Virus record (IMG/VR): IMGVR_UViG_3300012665_000884
From: an uncultured virus (IMG/VR IMGVR_UViG_3300012665_000884)
Taxonomy: Duplodnaviria; Heunggongvirae; Uroviricota; Caudoviricetes
Length of the DNA stretch: 38,890 nucleotides
Strand: one strand, 5' to 3'
Positions 13,879 through 24,544 of this stretch are shown piece after piece. The notes beneath the pieces are model-generated. The model made no database searches, had not been told where the DNA came from, and saw only the letters and a list, made by a program, of their open reading frames with translations. Position 1 is the stretch's first letter. Each line of letters opens with the position of its first letter. The translations under genes were made by a program, and so were the position numbers.

Positions 13879-14025
13879 ATGAGTAAAATGTCTGACCTTG
13901 ATTTGCAAATTCGTGACTTGATTGAAAACGGCTATGATGCCGAGGCAATTTCCTTAATTTTGGATGTGCCACAATCTTGGGTGTATGAAATTTCTGGAGA
14001 AATTAATGATGAATGTTTTGAGTAA
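13879..14025 (+). CDS. Small HTH-like protein
   Basis: GGAG SD; GYDAEAISLILDVPQSWVYE. Confidence 0.65.
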   Translation: MSKMSDLDLQIRDLIENGYDAEAISLILDVPQSWVYEISGEINDECFE

Positions 14026-14200
14026 TATCGGTGCATGGTTCAAAGAGTATGATGATGAAATCACATGGTTTCTAATTGGCTCGTTGTTTGCGGATGGTGT
14101 CAATGAAATTAACAAAAGTGTTCCTTTTGGATTATTTTTACTGTTTATTTCTGCCGTCCTCTGGGTTATCTACATGAGAGAATTGAAAGGTCGTAAATGA
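14006..14200 (+). CDS. Small membrane protein
   Basis: GGAG SD; hydrophobic segments. Confidence 0.65.
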   Translation: MMNVLSNIGAWFKEYDDEITWFLIGSLFADGVNEINKSVPFGLFLLFISAVLWVIYMRELKGRK

Positions 14201-14433
14201 GCCGCTATATTTCCGTGAACGTTGATGTTGATTTGTCTGATTTTGATACCGAAGATTTGGTTGAAGAATTGGATGCCCGCGGCCGCCACCCGAGCGGCCA
14301 TTTTAAAGAAGCGGATCCATATACAATACAAAGAAGTTTGCTTGATAAAATCTTTCACAAGCGCCGTGAAGGTAAAGATTACGAAAAAGAATTGGACGAA
14401 TACCTATACATCGTGACGGGTCGTGCTATATAA
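14197..14433 (+). CDS. Hypothetical protein
   Basis: VDVDLSDFDTEDLVEELDARG. Confidence 0.75.
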   Translation: MSRYISVNVDVDLSDFDTEDLVEELDARGRHPSGHFKEADPYTIQRSLLDKIFHKRREGKDYEKELDEYLYIVTGRAI

Positions 14434-14562
14434 AGATTATGATGAAGCCAAGAAATTTAGTTGCTAAAGACTTACGCACACCGAAGTATCGGATGCGTGT
14501 TGTCGCCTTGGCTATAGCATACAATCGTAAAAAAGAAGAAGCCAAGTTAAAAAAGGAATTGC

Positions 14563-14934
14563 ATGAGAAAACATACTGAAATGCAGGAGTACGATGGTTT
14601 TCTTTTCTTGCCGTCCGATGAAGAGGAAGATGATGAAGATACGTTGGAGTTTCGATTCATTAAGTATAAACAAGATTTTGGTCCTGCTGTAGAAGGCAAT
14701 GACATTGGTGAAAAATATCACGTGGCATTTTTTAAGCGTGATGAAGAAGGTAAGTTCCACTTTGATGAAGAGTTTGAGGCAATTTTCTCAGACCCAATGA
14801 CTTATGCAAAAGGACTTATCGGATACAATCTGTTTGGTACGATTGTGAAAAAGAAAGAAAATACCAGGCCATGGTTCGATGAATACTTGACAGATATCAA
14901 GGCAAGTGTTACAATGAGTGATGTAAAAAGTTAA
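14563..14934 (+). CDS. Hypothetical acidic protein
   Basis: AAGGA SD; ORF track. Confidence 0.75.
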   Translation: MRKHTEMQEYDGFLFLPSDEEEDDEDTLEFRFIKYKQDFGPAVEGNDIGEKYHVAFFKRDEEGKFHFDEEFEAIFSDPMTYAKGLIGYNLFGTIVKKKENTRPWFDEYLTDIKASVTMSDVKS

Positions 14935-14943
14935 GGAGTTGTT

Positions 14944-15246
14944 ATGATTAAGAGTGAGTTCAAAAGTATGTTTCTGAATGACGCCGAACACCAAGAGTGG
15001 TTGTTAGGTGTTTTGCGTTCTGGTCCTGTTACTGTTAACTTCATGAAAGTTGATGGTACCGAACGTGCTATGTCATGTACACTTGACGAATCAATTATCC
15101 CGGATGAATTTGCTCCAAAAGCAAAAGAAGAAGGTGCAGTTGAACGTAAGAAGTCTACGGAATCAGTTGCTGTGTTTGACCTTGAGAAAGAGGGTTGGCG
15201 TTCGTTCCGTTGGGATTCAATTAAATCTATCACACTAGAGGCATAA
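14944..15246 (+). CDS. WYL_2 / Sm-like SH3 beta-barrel protein
   Basis: VTVNFMKVDGTERAMSCTL...VAVFDLEKEGWRSFRWDSI. Confidence 0.8.
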   Translation: MIKSEFKSMFLNDAEHQEWLLGVLRSGPVTVNFMKVDGTERAMSCTLDESIIPDEFAPKAKEEGAVERKKSTESVAVFDLEKEGWRSFRWDSIKSITLEA

Positions 15247-15248
15247 TC

Positions 15249-15527
15249 ATGGTATCAATCGTAAAATCGGAGTGGCACCAAGTTGAGAAACGTTATGAGG
15301 TTGAAATTGACCGCGAACTATTTGGTGAAATTTATTGTGAAATTCAAGATCAAGCTGAACTTGATTTGATGTATCTCCAGTTTGAGGCTGGTGAAATTTC
15401 CGCCGATGAAGTGATGGAAAAAGCATACAATGAAGGACCAGACCTCGACTGGGACTGGCTTGATGAAGATGACTGGTGGACAGACCGCAAAGGTGGTTAC
15501 GAAGTAACTTATGAGGTGCAAGTATGA
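15249..15527 (+). CDS. Hypothetical acidic protein
   Basis: GAGG SD; DWWTDRKGGYEVTY. Confidence 0.75.
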   Translation: MVSIVKSEWHQVEKRYEVEIDRELFGEIYCEIQDQAELDLMYLQFEAGEISADEVMEKAYNEGPDLDWDWLDEDDWWTDRKGGYEVTYEVQV

Positions 15528-15919
15528 GTGTATCATGGACAGTAAGCCCAACTTGGAAAAAATCTCTCATTGAACGTCAACACTGGATTAACGGTGAAGA
15601 ACCTGATAAACGTTTCTATATTGATACATGCTGGCGCGGTGGTTCATTCACGGTTTATACCGATGATGATAATCCTCCAAAAATTGAAGCTGGTGTAGAT
15701 ATTTACGATTGTGGATATGATACGGAGTTGATTGAGTGTTTCGATGGATGTTCCGAAGAATATAATTTTGATGACCTTGATTCATTTGAGATTGTACAAT
15801 GGTTAAAAGAATTCTTGGAAGAAAATTCCATGTATGATTTGGAAGAACATGGTTGGTATTTAAGTGATACCGAAATGTTCATCGAATGTGATTTGGAGAT
15901 TACAAAGGACGAACAATGA
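15524..15919 (+). CDS. Hypothetical acidic protein
   Basis: GAGG SD; ATGA overlaps. Confidence 0.75.
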   Translation: MSVSWTVSPTWKKSLIERQHWINGEEPDKRFYIDTCWRGGSFTVYTDDDNPPKIEAGVDIYDCGYDTELIECFDGCSEEYNFDDLDSFEIVQWLKEFLEENSMYDLEEHGWYLSDTEMFIECDLEITKDEQ

Positions 15920-16206
15920 AAAAGTATATTGTAGAAACTGTTTCCTCATACAGAATGGTTCATGTGGTTGAAGTTGAGGACGAAAGTGATATTCCTTTAC
16001 TGACGAAAAACGCTGACGATAACTGGCAACAACACCTTGGTGAATTGCAGTTTGACATTACGGAATATTCGGAAGAAAAGATTGCACGATTCCGTGAGAA
16101 GGATTATTTCTGGGATGGTGTTTCATTTATTAGTGAAGATGGCTTTATCAAGTACAAGTACCCGAATGGTGAAATTCGTGATGCACATGCGATAAAAGTA
16201 AAATAA
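15916..16206 (+). CDS. Hypothetical protein
   Basis: MKKYIVETVSSYRMVHVVE...QHLGE. Confidence 0.75.
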   Translation: MKKYIVETVSSYRMVHVVEVEDESDIPLLTKNADDNWQQHLGELQFDITEYSEEKIARFREKDYFWDGVSFISEDGFIKYKYPNGEIRDAHAIKVK

Positions 16207-16230
16207 TTTAAAAATATTTGAAAAAACCTA

Positions 16231-16259
16231 TTGACAAAAGAAAAAAAAGCATATATAAT
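16231..16259 (+). promoter_or_regulatory. Consensus sigma70 promoter for the leader ORF
   Basis: TTGACA-17-TATAAT; predicted +1 near 16266, the A of the ATG. Confidence 0.85.
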
Positions 16260-16265
16260 AACACT

Positions 16266-16382
16266 ATGATGAAATTATCACATTCCCCTAAACAGCCGTC
16301 ACGATTGAATTCGTGGACGCTCGGCTATTGCTTTGATACGGCGATTGAGGGAAGTGGGTATTGTGAAGGTAGGGATGGCTAA
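16266..16382 (+). CDS. Putative leaderless leader peptide (38 aa) of the tRNA array
   Basis: MMKLSHSPKQPSRLNSWTLGYCFDTAIEGSGYCEGRDG; lies between a promoter and a terminator. Confidence 0.6.
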   Translation: MMKLSHSPKQPSRLNSWTLGYCFDTAIEGSGYCEGRDG

Positions 16383-16404
16383 ATAAAAGTCTCCTCAAGT
16401 TCAC

Positions 16405-16435
16405 AAGCCCTAGTCCAAAAAACTAGGGCTTTTTT
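16405..16435 (+). terminator. Rho-independent terminator, candidate attenuator
   Basis: AAGCCCTAGT-ccaaaaa-ACTAGGGCTT plus T-tract; its 5' arm can alternatively pair with 16356-16367. Confidence 0.85.
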
Positions 16436-16442
16436 CTTATGC

Positions 16443-16503
16443 GTTGTTTGTTTACAACATATACGAAAAAAAGATTGACATTAGCATCGTTCTATTGTAA
16501 AAT
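16443..16503 (+). promoter_or_regulatory. Promoter with upstream GTTG-N8-CAAC site
   Basis: GTTGtttgtttaCAAC 16443-16458, TTGACA 16475, TAAAAT 16498. Confidence 0.75.
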
Positions 16504-16509
16504 ACAATC

Positions 16510-16536
16510 TGTTCTTTAAAAAGTTGTAGAGTAAAT
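16510..16536 (+). promoter_or_regulatory. boxA-like leader, copy 1
   Basis: TGTTCTTTAAAAAGTTGTAGAGTAAAT resembles rrn boxA TGCTCTTTAACA; repeated at 17301. Confidence 0.65.
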
Positions 16537-16539
16537 TGT

Positions 16540-16613
16540 TGGGGCATTGTGTAGTGGTAGCACAACGGTCTTTGAAGCCGTTAGTACTGGTTCGATTCCA
16601 GTTGCCCCTGCCA
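16540..16613 (+). tRNA. tRNA-Gln(TTG)
   Basis: Cloverleaf; ACGGT-ctTTGaa-GCCGT; encoded CCA. Confidence 0.92.
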
Positions 16614-16689
16614 TATGAAAACACATTAGTCGGTCATGCCTTGGCTGGGTAAAGATTGGCAAACCAATCGCTAGTGTGTTTCCATATGG
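16611..16689 (+). ncRNA. Inter-tRNA stem cassette A (putative three-way-junction RNA)
   Basis: CCATATGAAAACACATTAG pairs with CTAGTGTGTTTCCATATGG; internal hairpins CGGTCA/TGGCTG and GATTGG/CCAATC. Confidence 0.6.
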
Positions 16690-16782
16690 AGAGTAATGCA
16701 GGTGGGATGGTCCGCCGACGTGCCTTGAAAACACGGTTCTGCTGAATAAGTGGATGGGGTTCGACTCCTCTGCTCTCCGCCA
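16688..16782 (+). tRNA. tRNA-Ser(TGA), 8/4-type
   Basis: 8-bp acceptor GGAGAGTA/TGCTCTCC, 4-bp T stem, long variable arm, G73, CCA. Confidence 0.85.
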
Positions 16783-16788
16783 AATAAT

Positions 16789-16878
16789 GGTGAGGTCCTA
16801 TAATGGTATTAGAGCGGATTGCTAATCCGTCGGTCGGCGAAAGTTGGCTTCTGGGTTCGAGTCCCAGTCTCACCGCCA
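16789..16878 (+). tRNA. tRNA-Ser(GCT)
   Basis: GCGGA-ttGCTaa-TCCGT; long variable arm; GCCA end. Confidence 0.92.
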
Positions 16879-16891
16879 AAGAAAGATAATT

Positions 16892-17131
16892 ATGTGGAAT
16901 ATTAAAATTGAAAATGGAATGATATTGAATGCAAGTCCAACTTTGGATGATGCAATGAAGTTCGCAAAAAGTTATAACAAGTTTGTAATCATCACCGATG
17001 GTACTACCGAGATTGTAGGCAAGTTCGGTGTTGATGCAGTTGAAGACAAGATTCTACCTGATGGTGAATCATACACTTGGACAATGCGTAGGGATGAAAC
17101 TCACCGCAGTTCAAGAAAAAAGTTAGTGTAG
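16892..17131 (+). CDS. Conserved phage hypothetical protein within the tRNA array
   Basis: MWNIKIENG...EIVGKFGVDAVEDKILPDGESYTW; stop overlaps the tRNA-Cys 5' end. Confidence 0.75.
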   Translation: MWNIKIENGMILNASPTLDDAMKFAKSYNKFVIITDGTTEIVGKFGVDAVEDKILPDGESYTWTMRRDETHRSSRKKLV

Positions 17132-17205
17132 CGGTGGCAGAGTGGTCAATTGCAACGGATTGCAAATCCGTAAAGTCGTGAGTTCAAATCTCACCCGCTA
17201 CTCCA
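17128..17205 (+). tRNA. tRNA-Cys(GCA)
   Basis: ACGGA-ttGCAaa-TCCGT; U73; CCA. Confidence 0.92.
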
Positions 17206-17275
17206 GTTGTTAAAAAACAACAAATCAAAAATATTTTGAAAAAGTTGTTGACAAAGTTTGTGGATGTGTTATACT
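17206..17275 (+). promoter_or_regulatory. Promoter with upstream GTTG-N8-CAAC site
   Basis: GTTGttaaaaaaCAAC 17206-17221, TTGACA 17248, TGtTATACT ending 17275. Confidence 0.75.
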
Positions 17276-17300
17276 TCATCCATGAGTTGAGAAATCAACA

Positions 17301-17327
17301 TGTTCTTTAAAAATTTGTAGAGTAAAT
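17301..17327 (+). promoter_or_regulatory. boxA-like leader, copy 2
   Basis: TGTTCTTTAAAAATTTGTAGAGTAAAT, 26/27 identical to 16510-16536. Confidence 0.65.
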
Positions 17328-17402
17328 GCACGATTCGTCTATCGGTTAGGACGCTGCCCTTTCAAGGCGGAAAGACGAGTTCGATTCTCGTATCGTGTAC
17401 CA
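17328..17402 (+). tRNA. tRNA-Glu(TTC)
   Basis: CTGCC-ctTTCaa-GGCGG; CCA. Confidence 0.92.
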
Positions 17403-17641
17403 TATTAAATTATATTAGGTTATCAATGCCAGTAGGTAACATAGCATCGTGATGTACACTGCCGAGTGTGCCGTGTCTATGTTACATGAAAGATGGAAAC
17501 GAAGTCTAAGGACGGATACTGTAAATCACGCTGGGTAAGTTGATGCGTAATGTGGTTGACAAACAAATCCATGGACGGCATGGTAGGGCAGTTTCAAAGC
17601 TGTTATTTTTGTCAAACATCCTAGTGTAATTTAATATGGTA
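17398..17641 (+). ncRNA. Inter-tRNA stem cassette B (about 240-nt structured RNA)
   Basis: 22-bp closing stem TACCATATTAAATTATATTAGG/CCTAGTGTAATTTAATATGGTA with multiple internal helices. Confidence 0.7.
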
Positions 17642-17645
17642 GAAT

Positions 17646-17720
17646 GCCTTGATAGCATAAAGGTAGTGCCGTCAACTCATAATTGATATGGTACTGGTTC
17701 GAATCCAGTTCAAGGCACCA
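17646..17720 (+). tRNA. tRNA-Met/Ile2(CAT)
   Basis: GTCAA-ctCATaa-TTGAT; ACCA end. Confidence 0.88.
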
Positions 17721-17724
17721 ACAT

Positions 17725-17798
17725 GGGGGTATAACTTAGTGGTAAAGTGTCTGGCTTTTAACCAGAGAACCAGAGTTCAATTCTCTGTGCCCCTACCA
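17725..17798 (+). tRNA. tRNA-Lys(TTT)
   Basis: TCTGG-ctTTTaa-CCAGA. Confidence 0.92.
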
Positions 17799-17810
17799 TA
17801 TAATAGTTTT

Positions 17811-17896
17811 GGAGAACGAGAAGCATTGGCGACTTCAGGTGACTGTAAATCATCCACCTTCGGGTATACGGGGTTCGATTCCCTGGTTCTCCACCA
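17811..17896 (+). tRNA. tRNA-Tyr(GTA)
   Basis: GGTGA-ctGTAaa-TCATC; variable arm; ACCA end. Confidence 0.9.
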
Positions 17897-17901
17897 AATT
17901 T

Positions 17902-17976
17902 AGTCTCAAAGTGTTCATGGACGCACATCAGCCTGTCACGCTGAAAGAAGGGGATCGTTACCCCTTGGGACTGCCA
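17902..17976 (+). tRNA. tRNA-Asp(GTC)
   Basis: TCAGC-ctGTCac-GCTGA; atypical T-loop ATCGTTA; GCCA end. Confidence 0.88.
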
Positions 17977-17983
17977 AGTTTAT

Positions 17984-18062
17984 TCCGGAAAATCCAAGCA
18001 TGGTGCAAGGACTTGACTGTTAATCAATGATTAGGTGGGTTCGATCCCCACATCCGGAGCCA
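17984..18062 (+). tRNA. tRNA-Asn(GTT)
   Basis: TTGA-ctGTTaa-TCAA; GCCA end. Confidence 0.9.
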
Positions 18063-18066
18063 ACAT

Positions 18067-18143
18067 GCCCTCTTACTCCAATTGGTAGAGAGGACGGCCT
18101 TAGAAGCCGTAAAGTCTGAGTTCGAATCTCAGAGAGGGCACCA
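18067..18143 (+). tRNA. tRNA-Leu(TAG), short variable loop
   Basis: ACGGC-ctTAGaa-GCCGT; 5-nt variable region. Confidence 0.88.
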
Positions 18144-18149
18144 GAGCCT

Positions 18150-18190
18150 CGCCTTGACTGATGGCGTATAAAAGGATAAGTAATCAGTTA
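18150..18190 (+). ncRNA. Putative H-type pseudoknot in a tRNA spacer
   Basis: CGCC/GGCG stem; loop TGACTGAT pairs with ATCAGTTA (18183-18190). Confidence 0.4.
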
Positions 18191-18193
18191 TTT

Positions 18194-18268
18194 GGGCTGT
18201 TAGTGATAATGGTAGCACATGTGCTTTGCAAGCATGAAGCAGGAGTTCGATTCTCCTACGGTCCACCA
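18194..18268 (+). tRNA. tRNA-Ala(TGC)
   Basis: TGTGC-ttTGCaa-GCATG; G3.U70. Confidence 0.92.
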
Positions 18269-18274
18269 AATTCT

Positions 18275-18323
18275 GTAATGATGCGATCCACTCAGTTCAT
18301 TCTGTTTGCAGTAACATCATTAC
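18275..18323 (+). ncRNA. Small stem-closed element in a tRNA spacer
   Basis: Perfect 9-bp GTAATGATG/CATCATTAC enclosing 31 nt. Confidence 0.35.
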
Positions 18324-18327
18324 TTTT

Positions 18328-18401
18328 GCCCTGTTAGTTTAGTGGTAGAGCACCGGTTTTGTAATCCGGGAACGGCAGTTCGATTCTGTCACGGGGCACC
18401 A
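18328..18401 (+). tRNA. tRNA-Thr(TGT)
   Basis: CCGGt-ttTGTaa-tCCGG; ACCA end. Confidence 0.9.
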
Positions 18402-18407
18402 AGTTTT

Positions 18408-18483
18408 CTCTCTAAAGTGTTATCTGGTTGCATCCGCGGTTTGGGGCCGTGTGGTCTAGGTTCAAATCCTAGTAGGGAGACCA
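18408..18483 (+). tRNA. tRNA-Pro(TGG)
   Basis: CGCGG-ttTGGgg-CCGTG; C1-G72; A73. Confidence 0.9.
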
Positions 18484-18510
18484 ATTATAGTAGATTATAG
18501 TAGATTATAG
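18484..18510. repeat. 10-bp tandem repeat, 2.7 copies
   Basis: ATTATAGTAG ATTATAGTAG ATTATAG. Confidence 0.85.
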
Positions 18511-18582
18511 CGGGTAGGGCGGTCACCACACCGGTCTCATAAGCCAGGTGCATCGGCAGTTCGAATCTGTCACCCGCTTCCA
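18509..18582 (+). tRNA. Atypical tRNA-Met(CAT)
   Basis: AGCGGGT/ACCCGCT acceptor, loop ctCATaa, normal T arm; short D arm, bulged anticodon stem, U73. Confidence 0.7.
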
Positions 18583-18587
18583 ATTTT

Positions 18588-18663
18588 GGTGATATAGTTC
18601 AATTGGTAGAACACCACCTTCATACGGTGACTGTTGGGAGTTCAAGTCTCTCTATCACCACCA
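18588..18663 (+). tRNA. tRNA-Met/Ile2(CAT)
   Basis: CACC-ttCATac-GGTG; ACCA end. Confidence 0.85.
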
Positions 18664-18668
18664 ATTAT

Positions 18669-18743
18669 GCAGTAATGGTTGGGTAGGGGCGTAGGCTCCG
18701 CATTCTAGATTCCCGCAAAGGTTCGAGTCCTTTGGCTGCACCA
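18669..18743 (+). ncRNA. tRNA-like RNA lacking canonical D and anticodon arms
   Basis: Acceptor GCAGTaA/TgGCTGC, perfect T arm AAAGG-TTCGAGT-CCTTT, ACCA end; middle does not form a cloverleaf. Confidence 0.65.
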
Positions 18744-18749
18744 AATAAT

Positions 18750-18824
18750 GGGCGATTCGTATAGTGAATAATACACGAGGCTACGAACCTTGAAACAGGA
18801 GTTTGATTCTCTTATTGCCCTCCA
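18750..18824 (+). tRNA. tRNA-Arg(ACG)
   Basis: CGAGG-ctACGaa-CCTTG. Confidence 0.88.
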
Positions 18825-18829
18825 AATTT

Positions 18830-18903
18830 ACCTGGTTAGTTAAATGGTATAACGGAGGCTTGATAAGCCTTTATTACAAGTTCAATTCTTGTACCAGGTA
18901 CCA
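18830..18903 (+). tRNA. tRNA-Ile(GAT)
   Basis: GAGGC-ttGATaa-GCCTT. Confidence 0.9.
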
Positions 18904-18908
18904 AATAT

Positions 18909-18982
18909 ATCTCGTTGGTGTAATGGTAGCACAAGAAACTCCAAATCTCTTGGCGGGAGTTCGATTCTCTCACGGGATACCA
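18909..18982 (+). tRNA. tRNA-Trp(CCA)
   Basis: AGAaA-ctCCAaa-TcTCT; CCA end. Confidence 0.88.
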
Positions 18983-19004
18983 GTTCGTTAGAAAAAGGAA
19001 TAAT

Positions 19005-19475
19005 ATGTACAACGAAAAAATTGACTTGGAAGAAGTGAAAGCATACGTAGAAAATTGTGGTCCAGATACCAAAATTTATCTGGGTTGCGATTCTGAGAAA
19101 GTTAAGGTAAGAGGTGATTGGTATGCTGATTACATTATCGCCATCGTTGTGCATATTGACGGTAAACATGGTTGCAAAATCTTTGGTCAAATTACCAGAG
19201 AACGAGACTATGAAAAACAACGCAACAAGCCTAGAATGCGATTGATGAATGAAGTGTATAAAGTGGCTGATATGTACCTGCAATTATCGGAAATGATTGC
19301 GAATGATATTGAAGTTCATCTTGACATTAACCCTAACCAAATGTATAATTCTAGTATTGTTGTTAACGAAGCGGTAGGATATATAAAGGGTATGTGTAAC
19401 GTAGTGCCTTTGGTTAAGCCAAATGCATTCGCCGCTTCTTACGCCGCAGATAGATTGAAAAGTTTAGCGGCTTAG
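19005..19475 (+). CDS. RNase H-like YkuK (DUF458) family protein
   Basis: KIYLGCDS, IAIVVH...GCKIF, RLMNEV, EVHLDIN, VKPNAFAASYAADR. Confidence 0.85.
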   Translation: MYNEKIDLEEVKAYVENCGPDTKIYLGCDSEKVKVRGDWYADYIIAIVVHIDGKHGCKIFGQITRERDYEKQRNKPRMRLMNEVYKVADMYLQLSEMIANDIEVHLDINPNQMYNSSIVVNEAVGYIKGMCNVVPLVKPNAFAASYAADRLKSLAA

Positions 19476-19515
19476 ACGCCGCACCCCGATGCCCATATCG
19501 TTAAATGGGCAAGTT

Positions 19516-19589
19516 GCGGGATTAGTTTAGTGGTAAAACGTCATCCTTCCAAGTTGAAGTTGCGAGTTCGATTCTCGCATCCCGCTCCA
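19516..19589 (+). tRNA. tRNA-Gly(TCC)
   Basis: GCGGGAT/ATCCCGC; loop ctTCCaa; U73. Confidence 0.92.
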
Positions 19590-19665
19590 TATAAAAACAC
19601 ACTTGACTAAATTCGGGTTCATCCGTGTGACTTAGTTGTTCCTATATTGAGTGTGTTTTTATATG
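19588..19665 (+). ncRNA. Inter-tRNA stem cassette C
   Basis: CATATAAAAACACACTT/GAGTGTGTTTTTATATG (17 bp); internal GACTAA/TTAGTT and CGGG-ttca-TCCG. Confidence 0.6.
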
Positions 19666-19738
19666 CGGGATTGATGTAATGGTTGCCTGTGACCTTGCCA
19701 AGGTTATCGTAGGAGTTCGATTCTCCTATCCCGCTCCA
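19665..19738 (+). tRNA. tRNA-Gly(GCC)
   Basis: TGACC-ttGCCaa-GGTTA; U73. Confidence 0.92.
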
Positions 19739-19744
19739 GTTTAT

Positions 19745-19819
19745 GGTGTCTATAGTTTAGTGGTAAAACCACGGGTTGTGATTCCGTTATCACGGGTTCA
19801 ATTCCCGTTAGACACCCCA
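19745..19819 (+). tRNA. tRNA-His(GTG)
   Basis: ACGGG-ttGTGat-TCCGT; G-1:C73. Confidence 0.92.
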
Positions 19820-19824
19820 ATTAT

Positions 19825-19899
19825 GCCTTGTTAACTCAGCGGTAGAGTGTCTCCCTTACAAGGAGAAGGTCGGCGGTTCGATCCCGTCACAAGGTACCA
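19825..19899 (+). tRNA. tRNA-Val(TAC)
   Basis: TCTCC-ctTACaa-GGAGA. Confidence 0.93.
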
Positions 19900-19904
19900 A
19901 TTAT

Positions 19905-19980
19905 GCAACTTTAGCTGATGTGGTCATAGCGGTGGTTTGAAGAACCATTGAAAGAGGTTCGATTCCTCTAGGTTGCACCA
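19905..19980 (+). tRNA. tRNA-Phe(GAA)
   Basis: GTGGT-ttGAAga-ACCAT. Confidence 0.9.
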
Positions 19981-20107
19981 TATAAAAACATTCTGAGTAA
20001 CTACGGTGGATAAACAGTAAACTTACAAACGCCGGCCAATGTAAGAACCTGCCATGAAGTAGGGTTACCAAGAGATTCAAGGACTCGGCAGAATGTTTCT
20101 ATATGGT
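19977..20107 (+). ncRNA. Inter-tRNA stem cassette D (multi-junction RNA)
   Basis: ACCATATAAAAACATTCTG/CAGAATGTTTCTATATGGT; internal GTAAC/GTTAC, CTTACA/TGTAAG, CCTGC/GTAGG. Confidence 0.65.
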
Positions 20108-20179
20108 TTGTAAACTTTGATGGCGAAGTACCCGGCTCTTACCCGGACTAACAGAGTTCGATTCTCTGACAAACCACCA
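20105..20179 (+). tRNA. tRNA-Lys(CTT)
   Basis: CCGG-ctCTTac-CCGG; ACCA end. Confidence 0.88.
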
Positions 20180-20181
20180 GA

Positions 20182-20327
20182 TTTTGAGATAGACGTTGAG
20201 GTTGAGTCCCTTGTTCGCTAGTGCCCTATTCTTGAGCATGACACACCAGTAGCAGTTCAAGGTTGTTAAACTCCCTCAAACGAGACAAGCCAATGAGTCC
20301 TTAAGAAAGATAGTTGGTCTCTCAAAA
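20182..20327 (+). ncRNA. Putative structured ncRNA (about 145 nt)
   Basis: TTTTGAGA/TCTCAAAA closing stem; TTGAGG/CCTCAA, GAGT/ACTC and CTTGAGC/GTTCAAG nested helices; no ORF. Confidence 0.5.
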
Positions 20328-20352
20328 ACCTATTAGTACTTTTATCTTATAT

Positions 20353-20379
20353 TGACAAATCTTCGGATTATGATATAAT
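20353..20379 (+). promoter_or_regulatory. Sigma70-type promoter
   Basis: TTGACA...TGaTATAAT upstream of the phosphoesterase. Confidence 0.75.
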
Positions 20380-20399
20380 TTAATTTTAGGAGATAACAC

Positions 20400-20927
20400 A
20401 TGTCTAACATTTTTCTTGTAAGTGACACACATTTTGGTCACCTTGGTGTGTGTAAATTTCTCCGCAATGACGGAACAAAACTTCGACCTTGGGATAGTCC
20501 TGAGGAAATGGATGAAGCAATGGTGAAAGCATGGAACGAAACTGTGCGACCAAACGATAAAGTATATCATCTCGGTGATGTTGTTATCAACCGAAAAGCA
20601 CTTGCTACACTTAGCAGACTTAACGGTGATAAAGTCCTTATCAAAGGCAACCATGATATTTTCAGACTTGAAGAATACACCGCACATTTTAGGGACATTC
20701 GTGCTTATCATGTGATGGACAATATCATCATGTCACACATTCCCATACACATGAGTTCAAAAGGCAGATTCAAAGGAAACATTCATGGTCATACACATTC
20801 CAACAATGTAATGATTATGCATGGCGAAAAAGAAACCAATAACATTGATCCTTGGTATCAATGTGTATGTGTTGAACAAACAGATTTCAAACCAATTCCA
20901 TTTGAAGAGGTAAGAAAACGATTTTAA
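20400..20927 (+). CDS. Calcineurin-like metallophosphoesterase
   Basis: SDTHFGH, HLGDV, KGNHD, SHIP and HGHTH motifs. Confidence 0.9.
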   Translation: MSNIFLVSDTHFGHLGVCKFLRNDGTKLRPWDSPEEMDEAMVKAWNETVRPNDKVYHLGDVVINRKALATLSRLNGDKVLIKGNHDIFRLEEYTAHFRDIRAYHVMDNIIMSHIPIHMSSKGRFKGNIHGHTHSNNVMIMHGEKETNNIDPWYQCVCVEQTDFKPIPFEEVRKRF

Positions 20928-20928
20928 T

Positions 20929-21011
20929 GCGGGCATGGTGGAATGGTAGACACAAGAGACTTAAAATCTCTCGCCCTGTGCGTCCCGGTTCGAGTCCGGG
21001 TGCCCGTACCA
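20929..21011 (+). tRNA. tRNA-Leu(TAA)
   Basis: AGAGA-ctTAAaa-TCTCT; variable arm present. Confidence 0.92.
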
Positions 21012-21014
21012 AAT

Positions 21015-21091
21015 GCGCTTATATCCCAATTGGTAGAGGAATCAGTTTCAAACACTGACCAGTGTGAGTTCGAATCTCACTAAGCGTACCA
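21015..21091 (+). tRNA. tRNA-Leu(CAA), short variable loop
   Basis: TCAGT-ttCAAac-ACTGA; 5-nt variable region. Confidence 0.88.
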
Positions 21092-21096
21092 CATAA

Positions 21097-21117
21097 TTAC
21101 TCTACAATTTTTTAAAG
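21097..21117 (+). repeat. Reverse complement of the boxA leaders
   Basis: TTACTCTACAATTTTTTAAAG is complementary to 16514-16534 and 17305-17325. Confidence 0.8.
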
Positions 21118-21122
21118 TATAT

Positions 21123-21197
21123 CCGGCGTTAGTATAATGGATAATACAGCGGTCTTCTACACCGTGAATATGGGTTCGATTCCTGTACGCCGGACCA
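21123..21197 (+). tRNA. tRNA-Arg(TCT)
   Basis: GCGGT-ctTCTac-ACCGT. Confidence 0.92.
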
Positions 21198-21221
21198 TCA
21201 AGTTTCCTAAACATCTGACGA

Positions 21222-21229
21222 TATAAATA
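21222..21229 (+). promoter_or_regulatory. T4-type late promoter
   Basis: Intergenic TATAAATA. Confidence 0.65.
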
Positions 21230-21259
21230 TCAGTGTTGACCTAGGTCAGAAGGAACACA

Positions 21260-21355
21260 ATGCTCAAAAAGTCACCAGTGGCGGTACTTTTTGTTATGGC
21301 TATATTATCAGTCACTGAATCGACTACACCACACCAAACAATTAGGTGGTTCTAA
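21260..21355 (+). CDS. Small hydrophobic protein (31 aa)
   Basis: AAGGA SD; MLKKSPVAVLFVMAILSVTESTTPHQTIRWF; abuts the next ATG. Confidence 0.5.
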   Translation: MLKKSPVAVLFVMAILSVTESTTPHQTIRWF

Positions 21356-22138
21356 ATGGACCCGATTACGCTATTTGCTATGGCGAATGCGGCCGTGTCT
21401 GCCGTCAAAGCTGGTTGTAAACTCTATAAAGATATTAAGGGTGCCGCAGGCGATGTTAAGGACGTCATCAAAGACCTCGATGACCAGTTTAAGCATCAAC
21501 ATCCTCCAGAAAAACCAGCAACAATCGAACAACGTAACCAATTCGTTCAAGAGAAGAATCGTGTTATAGAGTTAAACAAGAAAGGTAACGCCGGTGAAGA
21601 AACTGGAATATACACTGAGATTGGTGAACATCTTGGTGCATATTATGATAACTTCTACAAATGCATGGCAATATTTGATGAAGAGGAGAAACGAGCAGAG
21701 AATGAAGTTTACACCGGTGAAGCATCATTAGGTAAACGTGCGCTCCAGCGTGTTCTAATGAAAAAACAATTAGAACAAATGTCCGTTGAACTGCGTGAGT
21801 TAATGATTTATCAATCTCCTCCTGAACTTGGTGCATTGTATACTGAGGTTGAAGAGATGATGAAACATATGGGTGCTACTCAACGTGTTTTAATTGCAAA
21901 ACAAATGCGTAATAATGAAGCAGATAAAATAAGAAAAAAAAGACGAGGCGAAAGATTGCGTGTTGAAATAGCGATTGGTCTTGCAGGATTGGCACTTGCC
22001 GCATTCATAGGTTCAATGATGGTATATGTTGTGTATGATAGAATCCAAAAATATCCTGCCCTAGGTGATGGAATGATTCCTAAGACAGCGGAACAAAGAC
22101 GAATTGATTCCGCACCAAAAGTATGGAGTGGAAGATAA
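21356..22138 (+). CDS. Helical/coiled-coil membrane protein
   Basis: 260 aa; amphipathic N-terminus MDPITLFAMANAAVSAVKAG; C-terminal TM segment. Confidence 0.8.
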   Translation: MDPITLFAMANAAVSAVKAGCKLYKDIKGAAGDVKDVIKDLDDQFKHQHPPEKPATIEQRNQFVQEKNRVIELNKKGNAGEETGIYTEIGEHLGAYYDNFYKCMAIFDEEEKRAENEVYTGEASLGKRALQRVLMKKQLEQMSVELRELMIYQSPPELGALYTEVEEMMKHMGATQRVLIAKQMRNNEADKIRKKRRGERLRVEIAIGLAGLALAAFIGSMMVYVVYDRIQKYPALGDGMIPKTAEQRRIDSAPKVWSGR

Positions 22139-22278
22139 TGAAGATGCCTTGGAGTAATCTATTGCAATATGGCGAAGCATTCGCAACAATAATTGTATTG
22201 TGTTGTGCAGGCATAATTTTAATGTCTGCTGTGGGTATCGCCGTTCTGATAACAAAATTTTCAGCATTCATTAGGTAA
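22138..22278 (+). CDS. Small membrane protein (46 aa)
   Basis: Manual translation MKMPWSNLLQYGEAFATIIVLCCAGIILMSAVGIAVLITKFSAFIR; TAATG coupling. Confidence 0.6.
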   Translation: MKMPWSNLLQYGEAFATIIVLCCAGIILMSAVGIAVLITKFSAFIR

Positions 22279-22379
22279 TACACTTTAGATACGGATATCG
22301 GCCACCGTATCAGAATCGTTTGGTAAACAAAAGTACTAAAACGAGAATTTCAGAGGCCGAATTTCTTGATAAAAAACAC

Positions 22380-22408
22380 TTGACAAATTTTCCATTCCTG
22401 CTATACTG
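22380..22408 (+). promoter_or_regulatory. Sigma70-type promoter
   Basis: TTGACA-17-TATACT with TG extension. Confidence 0.8.
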
Positions 22409-22434
22409 ATTCCATAGATTGATAAGGAGTTCGT

Positions 22435-22638
22435 ATGACTTGGAATTTAGAAGGCAAAAAAGTTGCTGGTAAGTACTTGGAAGAGTATCCTTTCATTGGT
22501 GTGGTTGTTGAAAGCCGTGTTAAGTACGGCGGTAAGGTTTGTAATACTATCTTACTAGATGCACCAATCGTGGTGTTCGGTGAGTTTCGTACCCGTGTGC
22601 TGGTAGAGACTGACCAAATTAGTCAAGTATTCGCTTGA
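22435..22638 (+). CDS. Hypothetical protein
   Basis: AAGGAG SD; GVVVESRVKYGG. Confidence 0.75.
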   Translation: MTWNLEGKKVAGKYLEEYPFIGVVVESRVKYGGKVCNTILLDAPIVVFGEFRTRVLVETDQISQVFA

Positions 22639-22642
22639 CCGC

Positions 22643-22701
22643 TTGACAAAGTTCCCAAACTGTGGTATAATTAACTCAAGAAATCAGAAAGAGAGAACAA
22701 A
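22643..22701 (+). promoter_or_regulatory. Early promoter module with conserved leader
   Basis: TTGACA-17-TATAAT then TAACTCAAGAAATCAGAAAGAGAG, as at 6933-6962. Confidence 0.85.
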
Positions 22702-23115
22702 ATGGCTTATATGAATCAAGAGAAAAAAGCAGTTATCAAAGCGGCTTTAGATAAGGCTCTAAAAGGTACCGGCGTTAAATTTTCGTTGTCAGTCTCAAAT
22801 CATACCTCAATTAGTTGCAACATCAAATCTGCTCCTATCGACTTGATTGCAAATATGAATGACGTTTGCCGATGTGCGCCTGGTGCGGATCGTTACGGTA
22901 AGTACCAAGATTCTGTCGGTAATGCCCAAGTTAATCCTTACTGGTACAAGGATCATTTTTCAGGTAAGGCTTTACAAATCATTGACAAAGTTGTGAAAGC
23001 CATGTATAGTGCAAACTACTACAATAATTCTGATGCGATGATAGACTACTTCGATTGTGCTTACTACATACATGTAAATATCGGTAAGTGGGATAAACCT
23101 TTCCAAGTTAAATGA
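22702..23115 (+). CDS. Conserved phage early protein
   Basis: MAYMNQEKK, VKFSLS, NNSDAMIDYFD.AYYIH.NIGKWDKPF. Confidence 0.8.
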   Translation: MAYMNQEKKAVIKAALDKALKGTGVKFSLSVSNHTSISCNIKSAPIDLIANMNDVCRCAPGADRYGKYQDSVGNAQVNPYWYKDHFSGKALQIIDKVVKAMYSANYYNNSDAMIDYFDCAYYIHVNIGKWDKPFQVK

Positions 23116-23220
23116 TAAAATACGCATTAATGAAAAACGGCAAGACTGTGGCTACATTCTACGTTCTTGCCTGCGCCGAAATTTTTCGGCGAGTTACGCG
23201 GAATAGTTATATAGAAGAAT

Positions 23221-23517
23221 ATGAGACCGACAGGAATATACGTATTACAAACGAGTGATGGATTTAGAGTTGCACCCTTAGATTATTATGAAGATTTATT
23301 TGATGGCTACTCTTCTGATATCATCCGTTATGTAAACAGAAAAAAAATAAAAGAAGCATTTGGTGATTGTATTGTTATGGACTACGCAGGTGCGATGGTC
23401 GCAGCCCAAACGATTGCTAAAATGTACCGAGAATGTGACGATGGTATTTTCGTAATGAAAGACTATCAATTTTACAGTTATGAGGAATTAGAAAATGGCA
23501 AGGCTTCCAAGAATTGA
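23221..23517 (+). CDS. Hypothetical protein
   Basis: GIYVLQTSDGFRVA. Confidence 0.7.
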   Translation: MRPTGIYVLQTSDGFRVAPLDYYEDLFDGYSSDIIRYVNRKKIKEAFGDCIVMDYAGAMVAAQTIAKMYRECDDGIFVMKDYQFYSYEELENGKASKN

Positions 23518-24544
23518 AGAACCAAAGTTTGACGGTACAATGTCAAACATACAATTGATGAATTCGTTGAACTGGTATCACCAGACAATGGAGAACAAGG
23601 ATGCAGTAAAATTCATCCAAGAATATGCAAAGAAAAATAAGATTCCTGGTCGAGTTGACACAGGCAAAAGTTATCTAACACTTGGTTGGACGTGCCGCTT
23701 AGTTGCTAATGGTAATGACATTGGTAAGAGTGGAATGGACTTTATTAAGACAAATATGAAAAGTGTTTTGACCGTTGTGGAAGATACACCCATTGCCGTT
23801 GTTGATGCTACACCAACTGTTTCCATCCAAGAAAGATTGAAAGAGAAAGTTGGTGAAATTGCTGGCGACTTGGAAGGTGCGATTGACGAATATATCCTAA
23901 GTGATTATAAGAATGCGCCATCACCACTTGCAATTATGAAAGACCGTGCCAAAGGTCTCCATGCATCACGATTGATTGAACAATTTAAAAAACGCCGTAT
24001 TGAATTTGATGATGTTTTGCACACCGAAGACAAACAGGTTCGTGAAGGCTATTCCAATTTCACTAAACCACAATTGAAAAAGTTGATTGCATATTGCGAT
24101 ACTATCATCACAGATGCCATGAAGATTGCTGGTGAAGCCAAAGTCAATCGTAAGAAACCCAAACGTAAGCAAAAGACTGCCGATCAATTGGTCGCTAATG
24201 TCAAAATCGGTGTTGAGGATACCACTTACAAAATTAAATCTGTGCCTACAAAAGAAATTATTGGTGCAACCCAAATGTGGGTGTTCAATACAAAGTATCG
24301 TAAACTCGGTGTGTATCATGCCGAAGATGCCGGTGGCTTTACCATCAAAGGTACAACAGTACAGAATTTTAGTGAATCAAAATCTATTCAAAAGATTTTA
24401 CGTAAACCTGAAACTGTTTTACCTGATGTACTGAAGGCTGGTAAAATTGCATTGAAAAATATCATGGGTAATATTAGTTCGAATGAATCTACCTTGAATG
24501 GTCGATTGAATGAAGATATTATTCTCCTGCGAGTTATTAAGTAG
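23495..24544 (+). CDS. Conserved T4-like phage protein of unknown function
   Basis: 349 aa; IIGATQMWVFNTKYRKL, KGTT...S.QK.LRKP, NGRLNEDIILLR; upstream of rnh. Confidence 0.85.
   Translation: MARLPRIEEPKFDGTMSNIQLMNSLNWYHQTMENKDAVKFIQEYAKKNKIPGRVDTGKSYLTLGWTCRLVANGNDIGKSGMDFIKTNMKSVLTVVEDTPIAVVDATPTVSIQERLKEKVGEIAGDLEGAIDEYILSDYKNAPSPLAIMKDRAKGLHASRLIEQFKKRRIEFDDVLHTEDKQVREGYSNFTKPQLKKLIAYCDTIITDAMKIAGEAKVNRKKPKRKQKTADQLVANVKIGVEDTTYKIKSVPTKEIIGATQMWVFNTKYRKLGVYHAEDAGGFTIKGTTVQNFSESKSIQKILRKPETVLPDVLKAGKIALKNIMGNISSNESTLNGRLNEDIILLRVIK

Follow-up and report, generated by a model that had tools for sequence, protein, structure and literature searches.

A short open frame ahead of a viral tRNA array

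We examined a 38,890-nucleotide (nt) stretch of DNA from an uncultured virus of the Caudoviricetes (IMG/VR record IMGVR_UViG_3300012665_000884), referred to here at its full length as the window, in which a promoter, a 38-codon open reading frame (ORF) and an intrinsic terminator stand ahead of an array of tRNA genes (Table 1). A preliminary description of this element had proposed a general tRNA-supply attenuator, in which a ribosome sampling the codons of a leader peptide would decide between terminator and antiterminator. The anatomy on which that proposal was built was recovered in our analysis. The promoter, P1, is the perfect sigma-70 sequence that had been claimed, and the A of the ORF's ATG sits 7 nt past its -10 hexamer, which is the expected +1; the P1 mRNA is predicted to be leaderless, starting at that A. 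P1, its spacer and the ATG context are near-identical in two distant relatives (L001 and L002). The ORF uses 31 distinct codons, among them all four Gly codons and four Ser codons, and encodes 19 of the 20 amino acids, lacking Val, exactly as counted before. The strong terminator reported behind it was also confirmed, with its stem-loop at 16405-16431 and a T run reaching 16435.

The array is interspersed with a few ORFs and further promoters. ARAGORN found 26 tRNAs with default settings, and a relaxed run added tRNA-Ser(UGA) (~16693-16782; Rfam 30.4 bits, Sec-like) and tRNA-Asn(GUU) (~17984-18062; Rfam 26 bits), giving the set of 28 that had been reported. Two promoters downstream of the terminator, P2 at 16475 and another at 17248, had been raised as a caveat, and both were found (11/12 matches each).

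Table 1. Coordinates of the leader element and of the features behind it in the window
Feature	Position	Strand	Basis
P1, consensus sigma-70 promoter: TTGACA (16231-16236), 17-nt spacer, TATAAT (16254-16259)	16231..16259	+	12/12 matches
Leader ORF MMKLSHSPKQPSRLNSWTLGYCFDTAIEGSGYCEGRDG, predicted leaderless, 38 codons + TAA	16266..16382	+	sequence; homologous ORFs in the family
Small hairpin within the ORF, CACGA-loop-TCGTG	16300..16315	+	fold; relatives
Arm A, GGGTATTGTGAA, codons 31-34: 5' arm of an antiterminator-like helix, within the ORF	16356..16367	+	RNAduplex; covariation
Arm B, TTCACAAGCCC: 3' arm of helix A:B	16400..16410	+	sequence; RNAduplex; covariation
Intrinsic terminator: 10-bp stem, 7-nt loop, T run	16405..16435	+	sequence; family folds
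P2, sigma-70-like promoter, TTGACA-17 nt-TAAAAT	16475..16503	+	11/12 matches
boxA-like motif, TGTTCTTTAAAAA	16510..16522	+	sequence; family comparison
tRNA array, 28 tRNAs for all 20 amino acids, tRNA-Gln(UUG) first	16540..21197	+	ARAGORN; Rfam

We compared the window ORF with 5609 windows drawn from the phage's own genes, as the preliminary description had suggested. Its 31 distinct codons placed it in the top 0.94% and its 19 amino acids in the top 4.2%; against stop-free shuffles of the ORF itself neither the codon count (P = 0.11) nor the number of amino-acid kinds (P = 0.06) stood out. An index resembling the codon adaptation index (CAI-like) was 0.55, compared with 0.72 +/- 0.06 in gene windows (lowest 0.2%). 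Taken by itself the window is only suggestive, and significance is supplied by the comparison with its family.

The 177-nt transcript of the window folds better than 200 of 200 shuffles (z = -3.56). The small hairpin within its ORF terminates exactly on a conserved Trp codon; it recurs with different loop letters in L125, L011, L119, L092, L001 and L022, and members of the L067 and L071 types carry a longer hairpin (GCCATGC...GCATGGC) at the same position. It could act as a pause hairpin that synchronises ribosome and polymerase. Separately, a contig of depth 2 from a freshwater DNA run joins position 16260 to 16387, that is, without the leader ORF; the shorter side of this junction is only 26 letters long, and the contig may be another organism's.

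A family of leaders with near-complete amino-acid composition

The 96-amino-acid protein encoded directly upstream of the element has three relatives in viral contigs (~42% identity), and the layout behind all three is TTGACA, a spacer, TATAGT, an ATG at +1, an ORF of 37-38 codons, a helix, a terminator and tRNA-Gln, with a promoter that matches the window's almost base for base. A family scan with a 20-letter pattern across the -10 region and the ATG returned 23 loci in viral contigs and 70 in metagenome contigs. The same pattern gave 37 loci in 185,579 prokaryote species (one genome each), none of them with the family promoter, ORF and terminator, and these bacterial and archaeal loci are chance matches. 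After removal of duplicates the set held 36 distinct members, the window counted; left out were L081 and L112 (peptides identical to those of L020 and L008, respectively), L123 (a probable chimera, in which unrelated GC-rich DNA comes after the promoter) and ~70 pattern matches without the family ORF. A second scan of viral contigs, independent of the promoter and using the two helix arms alone, yielded 12 further members; L134, L145, L149, L152, L154, L157 and L168, which lie in other contexts, were left out.

Members share one module order: a strong sigma-70 promoter, a short ORF at or near +1, helix A:B, a strong terminator, a boxA-like motif and a tRNA array. tRNAs lie downstream in 36 of 37 checked entries, the remaining one being cut off, and tRNA-Gln(UUG) leads the array in 26 of the 37. 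The family is known solely from uncultured phage contigs. A blastn search in distant mode with the window element and three relatives against a copy of INPHARED (50,697 phage records) returned tRNA matches and no match to the leader, and the description of the window's relatives as T4-like found no evidence; no cultured relative appeared in that search. Scanning 14000-24000 against Rfam with cmscan (E up to 1) gave tRNAs and weak chance matches only; at the element itself there was a single 23.8-bit match on the terminator hairpin, set against a gathering score of 50. Five family peptides had no match in Pfam and NCBIfam, leader-peptide models included (E up to 1), and the window peptide had none in PHROGs.

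The reading frame is maintained throughout. From the ATG it stays open for 31-50 codons in 36/36 members, while frames 2 and 3 over the same spans contain 108 and 149 stops (~0.09 per codon), a density at which 31 open codons are expected by chance in ~6% of cases each. It is also preserved despite length changes among relatives (37, 38, 41 and 43 codons). The ratio of non-synonymous to synonymous change (pN/pS) ranged from 0.18 to 1.46 with a median of ~0.45 (22 informative pairs of 25), and the entropies of codon positions 1, 2 and 3 were 1.16, 1.20 and 1.30, values that we read as weak purifying selection confounded by RNA structure. Conserved peptide positions include a His near residue 6, W-Q-(A/P)-(E/D)-Y-R, GFIG and G-x-C. 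The earlier prediction of a conserved ORF with poor amino-acid conservation thus held for the ORF and, given this pN/pS, in part for the conservation.

Five members (L135, L147, L163, L164 and L165) replace the leaderless start with a 5' untranslated region of 25-35 nt and a purine-rich ribosome site, and retain an ORF of 31-34 amino acids with 19-20 kinds. In L135 the ATG at +1 meets a stop after two codons, and the ORF begins at a GTG further on. The peptide family is maintained behind three distinct start contexts; the start context turns over around a preserved pangram ORF, by which we mean one encoding all 20 amino acids.

We then counted amino-acid kinds across the family. In the promoter-found set, 26/36 peptides contain all 20 amino acids and 4/36 contain 19, and among the 12 members found by their helix arms the corresponding numbers are 9 and 3. 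The shortest pangrams, in L163 and L147, have 31 and 32 residues. Combined into a core set of 43 distinct peptides (31-50 amino acids), 35 have 20 kinds and 7 have 19, and 30/43 reach 20 without counting the start Met. At a lineage cut-off of <70% identity (median pairwise identity 24%), 17/23 lineages have all 20. In a column shuffle, in which residues are permuted within alignment columns so that column conservation is kept and the combination within each sequence is broken, the 23 lineages gave a mean of 1.22 all-20 lineages (standard deviation 1.05, maximum 7; 20000 runs). An earlier set of 14 core lineages (<70% identity) had given 11 with all 20, against a shuffle mean of 1.44 and a maximum of 6 (20000 runs). 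Completeness in the family also far exceeds that of stop-free shuffles, and only 0.5% of protein windows from the phage's own genes reach 20 kinds at 38 amino acids and 2.8% at 50.

A profile search of 1.84 billion representative proteins produced 26 matches, of which 24 are short peptides, 17 with 20 kinds and 7 with 19; two long repetitive proteins (P0002 and P0020) were left out, and since several of the peptides are close to known members the set is only partly independent. Trp, His and Cys shift position between lineages yet persist: Trp lies in S-W-Q/L or near the C-terminus, and His at residue 6, 9, 12 or 14. That rare residues move and are nevertheless retained fits selection on whether they occur, not on where. 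Ahead of arm A, the ORF is unusually diverse in 15/15 lineages (mean z +2.3 to +2.5), with up to 20 kinds in 30 residues.

The codon-level side of the preliminary description fared differently. Given each peptide, synonymous codon diversity equals that of a uniform random choice (mean z 0.03), so the idea of a leader that samples codons was rejected; compared with expectation from this phage's own codon usage, the number of distinct codons is slightly raised (z 0.84). The signal lies at the amino-acid level and not at the codon level. It had further been noted that ten codons of the window ORF have no exactly cognate anticodon in the array, which is literally true for Watson-Crick pairing and uninformative given wobble: tRNAs of the array with U34 or I34 can read all ten by standard wobble. 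The many rare codons reflect an absence of codon adaptation, constraints of RNA structure, or both. That the leader ORF is translated, conserved and selected for amino-acid completeness is, in our judgement, very probable.

Helix A:B and the terminator

Arm A lies within the ORF in every member, and the arms assigned in the preliminary description pair as proposed: the extended A:B duplex of the window has an energy of -19.0 kcal/mol (RNAduplex), within the range of the core members (-12.5 to -21.2 kcal/mol). The last 6 nt of arm B (16405-16410, AAGCCC) are the base of the terminator 5' arm, and across the family arm B shares 3-7 nt with that arm. Because the C-run of arm B is the base of the terminator stem, the G-run of arm A and the last G-run of the terminator compete for it, and in most lineages the GGG of arm A contends with the terminator for the same CCC. 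The stop codon follows 9-28 nt past the start of arm A in 20 core members and 10-17 nt past it in the 12 members found by their helix arms, and it lies 22-32 nt ahead of the terminator 5' arm. A further helix suggested to compete, TTGAGGG with TCCTCAA, exists as complementary sequence, and the minimum free energy (MFE) fold uses other partners.

Covariation was assessed by aligning the 3' domains of 20 sequences and counting pairs explicitly. Over 12 A:B pairs, 81.9% of positions were paired compared with 75.7 +/- 1.3 in shuffles, 7/12 pairs had changed on both sides, and the covariation value was 0.218 compared with 0.117; 0/500 shuffles reached any of the observed measures, and controls with a slid register gave 0.015-0.098. 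The covarying antiterminator pairs predicted for relatives were thus found, and as the counts may be inflated by sequence kinship we take them as support and not as proof. When whole transcripts were aligned with MAFFT alone, which is not structure-aware, RNAalifold recovered only three pairs, those of the arm A GGG with CCC.

To ask how a ribosome might affect the terminator, we kept the RNA unpaired from -15 to +12 around each A-site codon and calculated how probable it is that the terminator's three basal pairs form; the model is one of equilibrium, with kinetics, pausing and real footprints outside it. In 11/20 core members the basal-pair probability was 0.10-0.54 with the ribosome in the first two-thirds of the ORF and 0.86-0.97 with it over the last codons, a rise of at least 0.3. 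A trp-like pairing of arm A with an upstream region (1:2) was rejected, since duplexes of arm A with upstream sequence were no better than those of shuffles (mean z +0.56, 20 members).

The weight of the downstream promoters differs among members. A P2-like second promoter is absent in about half of the relatives, and 15/31 core members have no TTGAC-type promoter in the interval from terminator to first tRNA; in L001 five tRNAs precede the next sigma-70-like promoter, and L132 is similar. With no other promoter, the first tRNAs of those members can be transcribed only through the terminator. The caveat raised over downstream promoters thus holds in the window and is void in roughly half of the relatives. 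In members without a second promoter the predicted switch amplitude had a median of 0.53 (n = 12), compared with 0.10 (n = 8) in the others (Mann-Whitney U test, p = 0.049, relatedness uncorrected).

Proposed ribosome-mediated attenuation and its alternatives

We consider it somewhat probable that the element is a ribosome-mediated attenuator that controls the terminator of the tRNA array and senses the supply of all amino acids or tRNAs. Selection for every amino acid is what a general sensor of amino-acid or tRNA supply predicts, and the composition of the leader is matched by an array whose tRNAs serve all 20. In such a device P1 would fire strongly, and a 70S ribosome would start at the 5'-terminal AUG and trail RNA polymerase. 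With all aminoacyl-tRNAs available, the ribosome would reach the last codons or the stop and hold arm A single-stranded, leaving arm B free; the complete terminator would then fold, and transcription would stop at 16431-16435. Slowing of the ribosome at any upstream codon, whether through scarcity of an amino acid or through depletion of a tRNA or its cleavage by a host nuclease, would instead let arm A pair with arm B, as would failure of a ribosome to load. With the C-rich base of its stem taken up, the terminator would be passed and polymerase would read on. The boxA-like site may then render the polymerase processive across the untranslated tRNA array.

We infer that the ORF is translated, that the position of the ribosome affects termination and that slowing turns the array on. 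The general supply attenuator of the preliminary description accordingly divides into a conserved module, an open ORF and selection for all amino acids, on which the comparisons agree with it, and the regulation itself, which we infer; its central idea gains strong comparative support, and its codon-level arguments fall away. Going further, the widespread pangram leader, with all 20 amino acids in 31-50 codons, may be a single universal sensor of aminoacyl-tRNA supply, in which a stall at any codon leads to a complete tRNA set being read, an idea to which we subscribe only tentatively.

Several observations weigh against attenuation of this kind. Arm B overlaps the terminator over a short stretch only (3-4 G-C pairs and flanking A's), and every member's MFE fold retains the complete terminator, hairpin and T run, with A:B shortened. 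In 9/20 core members, the window included, the basal-pair probability is high throughout, with little or no predicted switching; in the window it shifts only from 0.67 to 0.87. The window's own attenuator, small in predicted amplitude, would be partly bypassed through P2, and the window peptide is without Val. With no anti-antiterminator supported, untranslated RNA is predicted to read through in many members, unlike in trp. Certain residues, frequently Val but also Phe, Asp, Gly and Cys, occur only in or near arm A, and because a stall in arm A would favour termination, amino acids confined there would go unsensed. A pN/pS of ~0.45 and the conserved W..Y and G-x-C would also fit a functional peptide.

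Two groups of loci (L015/L097/L021 and L008/L112/L023) have peptides of 31-35 amino acids with only 13-18 kinds; they share the promoter, an ATGATG start, the helix and the terminator, and one or two further promoters always follow. These leaders may be degenerate or differently used copies. Partial tRNA sets were considered as the cause and rejected, as contigs of these types carry 32-40 tRNAs (a fourth contig, running to its end, has 8). The search patterns were derived from the family itself, and unlike variants are under-sampled as a result. Finally, among the four contig-level runs, the contigs of the single RNA run cover just 15900-16030, in the upstream gene.

Much of this could be accommodated if the ORF were a small early phage protein gene (31-50 amino acids) with its own promoter and terminator, syntenic with the array by chance. 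Its peptide would act in trans, for example on host translation or the tRNA machinery; A:B would only stabilise the 3' end of the mRNA, and the tRNAs would be made through ordinary leaky read-through and other promoters. An ORF maintained in all members, a pN/pS mostly below 1, the conserved His, W-Q-(A/P)-(E/D)-Y-R, GFIG and G-x-C positions, a full terminator in all MFE folds and the presence of P2 in the window and about half of the members agree with such a gene. It predicts neither 35/43 peptides with all 20 amino acids, down to a length of 31, nor rare residues that move and yet are kept, and it sits poorly with a median identity between lineages of just 24%, with the unadapted codon usage, with a stop that always falls just beyond arm A and with the competition of arm A and terminator for the same CCC in most lineages. 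The peptides also have no match in the protein-family databases searched, and we find this explanation unlikely. The opposite view, that the element is a non-coding structured RNA, either a small RNA or the processed 5' leader of a tRNA precursor, with the open frame as a by-product, draws on the strong fold of the window transcript, the conserved hairpins, a promoter-to-terminator unit of 150-210 nt and an entropy at codon position 3 that is only slightly higher than at positions 1 and 2. A by-product would hardly stay open for 31-50 codons in every member when the other frames have ~0.09 stops per codon, survive changes of length, keep the same peptide family behind three start contexts or show a completeness far beyond that of stop-free shuffles, and Rfam (E up to 1) holds no family for it bar the weak terminator match; we regard a non-coding origin as highly improbable.

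A further alternative is a different output; the pangram statistics need translation and do not by themselves need a terminator switch. The ORF could be translated, and its completeness could matter, with the terminated leader RNA or its translation status timing other phage functions or giving them a checkpoint on host translation, or through coupling to RNA decay or Rho. The near absence of predicted switching in 9/20 core members, and the amino acids found only in arm A, which an attenuator would leave unsensed, point the same way. Against this stand the position of the element, found only directly ahead of tRNA genes (in every checked entry apart from the one cut off), the 15 core members whose first tRNAs are offered no other promoter, and a helix A:B that both covaries and overlaps the terminator, and control of something other than array termination seems to us quite improbable.

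Attenuation of the tRNA array, the reading that we prefer, can be set beside several known systems. Like the leader attenuators of amino-acid operons (trpL, hisL, leuL, thrL, ilvL/ivbL and pheL; also pheST), the element has a short ORF just past the promoter, an intrinsic terminator ahead of the regulated genes and an alternative helix that overlaps the terminator 5' arm, and it would follow the same logic, in which the position of the ribosome selects the helix and a ribosome at the stop favours termination. It differs from them in having no run of codons for one to three amino acids and instead 19-20 kinds in 31-50 codons, and in being followed by tRNAs and not by biosynthetic enzymes or synthetases. 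It is also phage-borne and mostly leaderless, its overlap with the terminator is short, and it has no supported 1:2 anti-antiterminator, such that untranslated RNA may read through. We file it as a variant of the leader-peptide attenuators, outside every described family.

Other leader peptides, such as those of ermC and cat and toiL, sense general translation stress. In bmrB-bmrCD, too, the leader-peptide attenuator is antibiotic-responsive (PMC4191407). The likeness to antibiotic-responsive leaders is that slowing of a ribosome at any or many positions of a short upstream ORF turns on the genes downstream, and that the signal is translation performance and not one metabolite; the difference is that they sense a drug-bound ribosome and regulate resistance genes. 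We know of none reported to need the full set of amino acids or to control tRNA genes. A T-box likewise couples the supply of charged tRNA to terminator read-through, but it senses one uncharged tRNA by RNA-RNA pairing without translation, whereas a conserved open frame is found here; Rfam gave no T-box match within 14000-24000 (E up to 1). In pyrBI and pyrE the spacing between leading ribosome and polymerase also controls an intrinsic terminator. In those two systems the ORF of the leader extends across the terminator, and it is the ribosome itself that blocks the hairpin, whereas here the ORF stops short of the terminator 5' arm and an intermediate helix would transmit the signal.

The motif TGTTCTTTAAAAA presumably resembles the boxA of rrn operons and lambda. 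In 23/31 core members it or a close variant occurs past the terminator and ahead of the first tRNA, and in the window the P2 transcript carries it at its 5' end. In rRNA operons boxA sits in the leader, ahead of untranslated RNA genes; TGTTCTTTAAAAA likewise precedes an array of untranslated RNA genes, past the terminator. Because it lies downstream of the attenuator terminator it cannot explain read-through there, and we treat it as a separate feature. By analogy it suggests that the host's NusB-NusE antitermination may be borrowed by phage tRNA arrays as a way across long stretches of RNA without translation.

Arrays of tRNA genes are common in phages, with little known of how their expression is controlled, and the role of phage tRNAs against host defences that target tRNA is an active question. 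If the array is attenuated as we propose, a stall caused by starvation, host anticodon nucleases or other tRNA-depleting defences would switch it on, and the phage would replace what the host withholds and shut the array once translation runs freely. The published titles and abstracts searched (outside subscription journals and supplements) described no leader peptide and no attenuator in front of tRNA genes of a phage, and no leader with all amino acids. If it works as proposed, no attenuator known before it monitors every amino acid together or regulates tRNA genes, and textbook attenuation would be extended from a single amino acid to all twenty, and to tRNAs in place of enzymes. An all-amino-acid leader would be a simple, general way to detect that translation is failing for any cause. 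The model predicts that deleting the codons of one amino acid from the leader loses only that starvation signal. Such a leader could also provide synthetic biology with a compact sensor of translational capacity, and the composition rule (all 20 amino acids in ~40 codons beside a terminator) offers a new criterion in searches for regulatory small ORFs.

Two further observations concern the array and its surroundings. Three more 12/12 sigma-70 promoters lie within 7 kb (19321-19349, 20352-20379 and 22643-22671), and, judged by their sequence, the 12/12 and 11/12 promoters divide the region into many short, putatively early-type transcription units. Within the array, an ORF of 156 amino acids (19005-19475) corresponds to phrog_11311, homologues of which occur in 77 phage records, large Vibrio phages among them, under the annotation DUF458 or 'ribonuclease', and it may have a tRNA-processing or tRNA-linked function.

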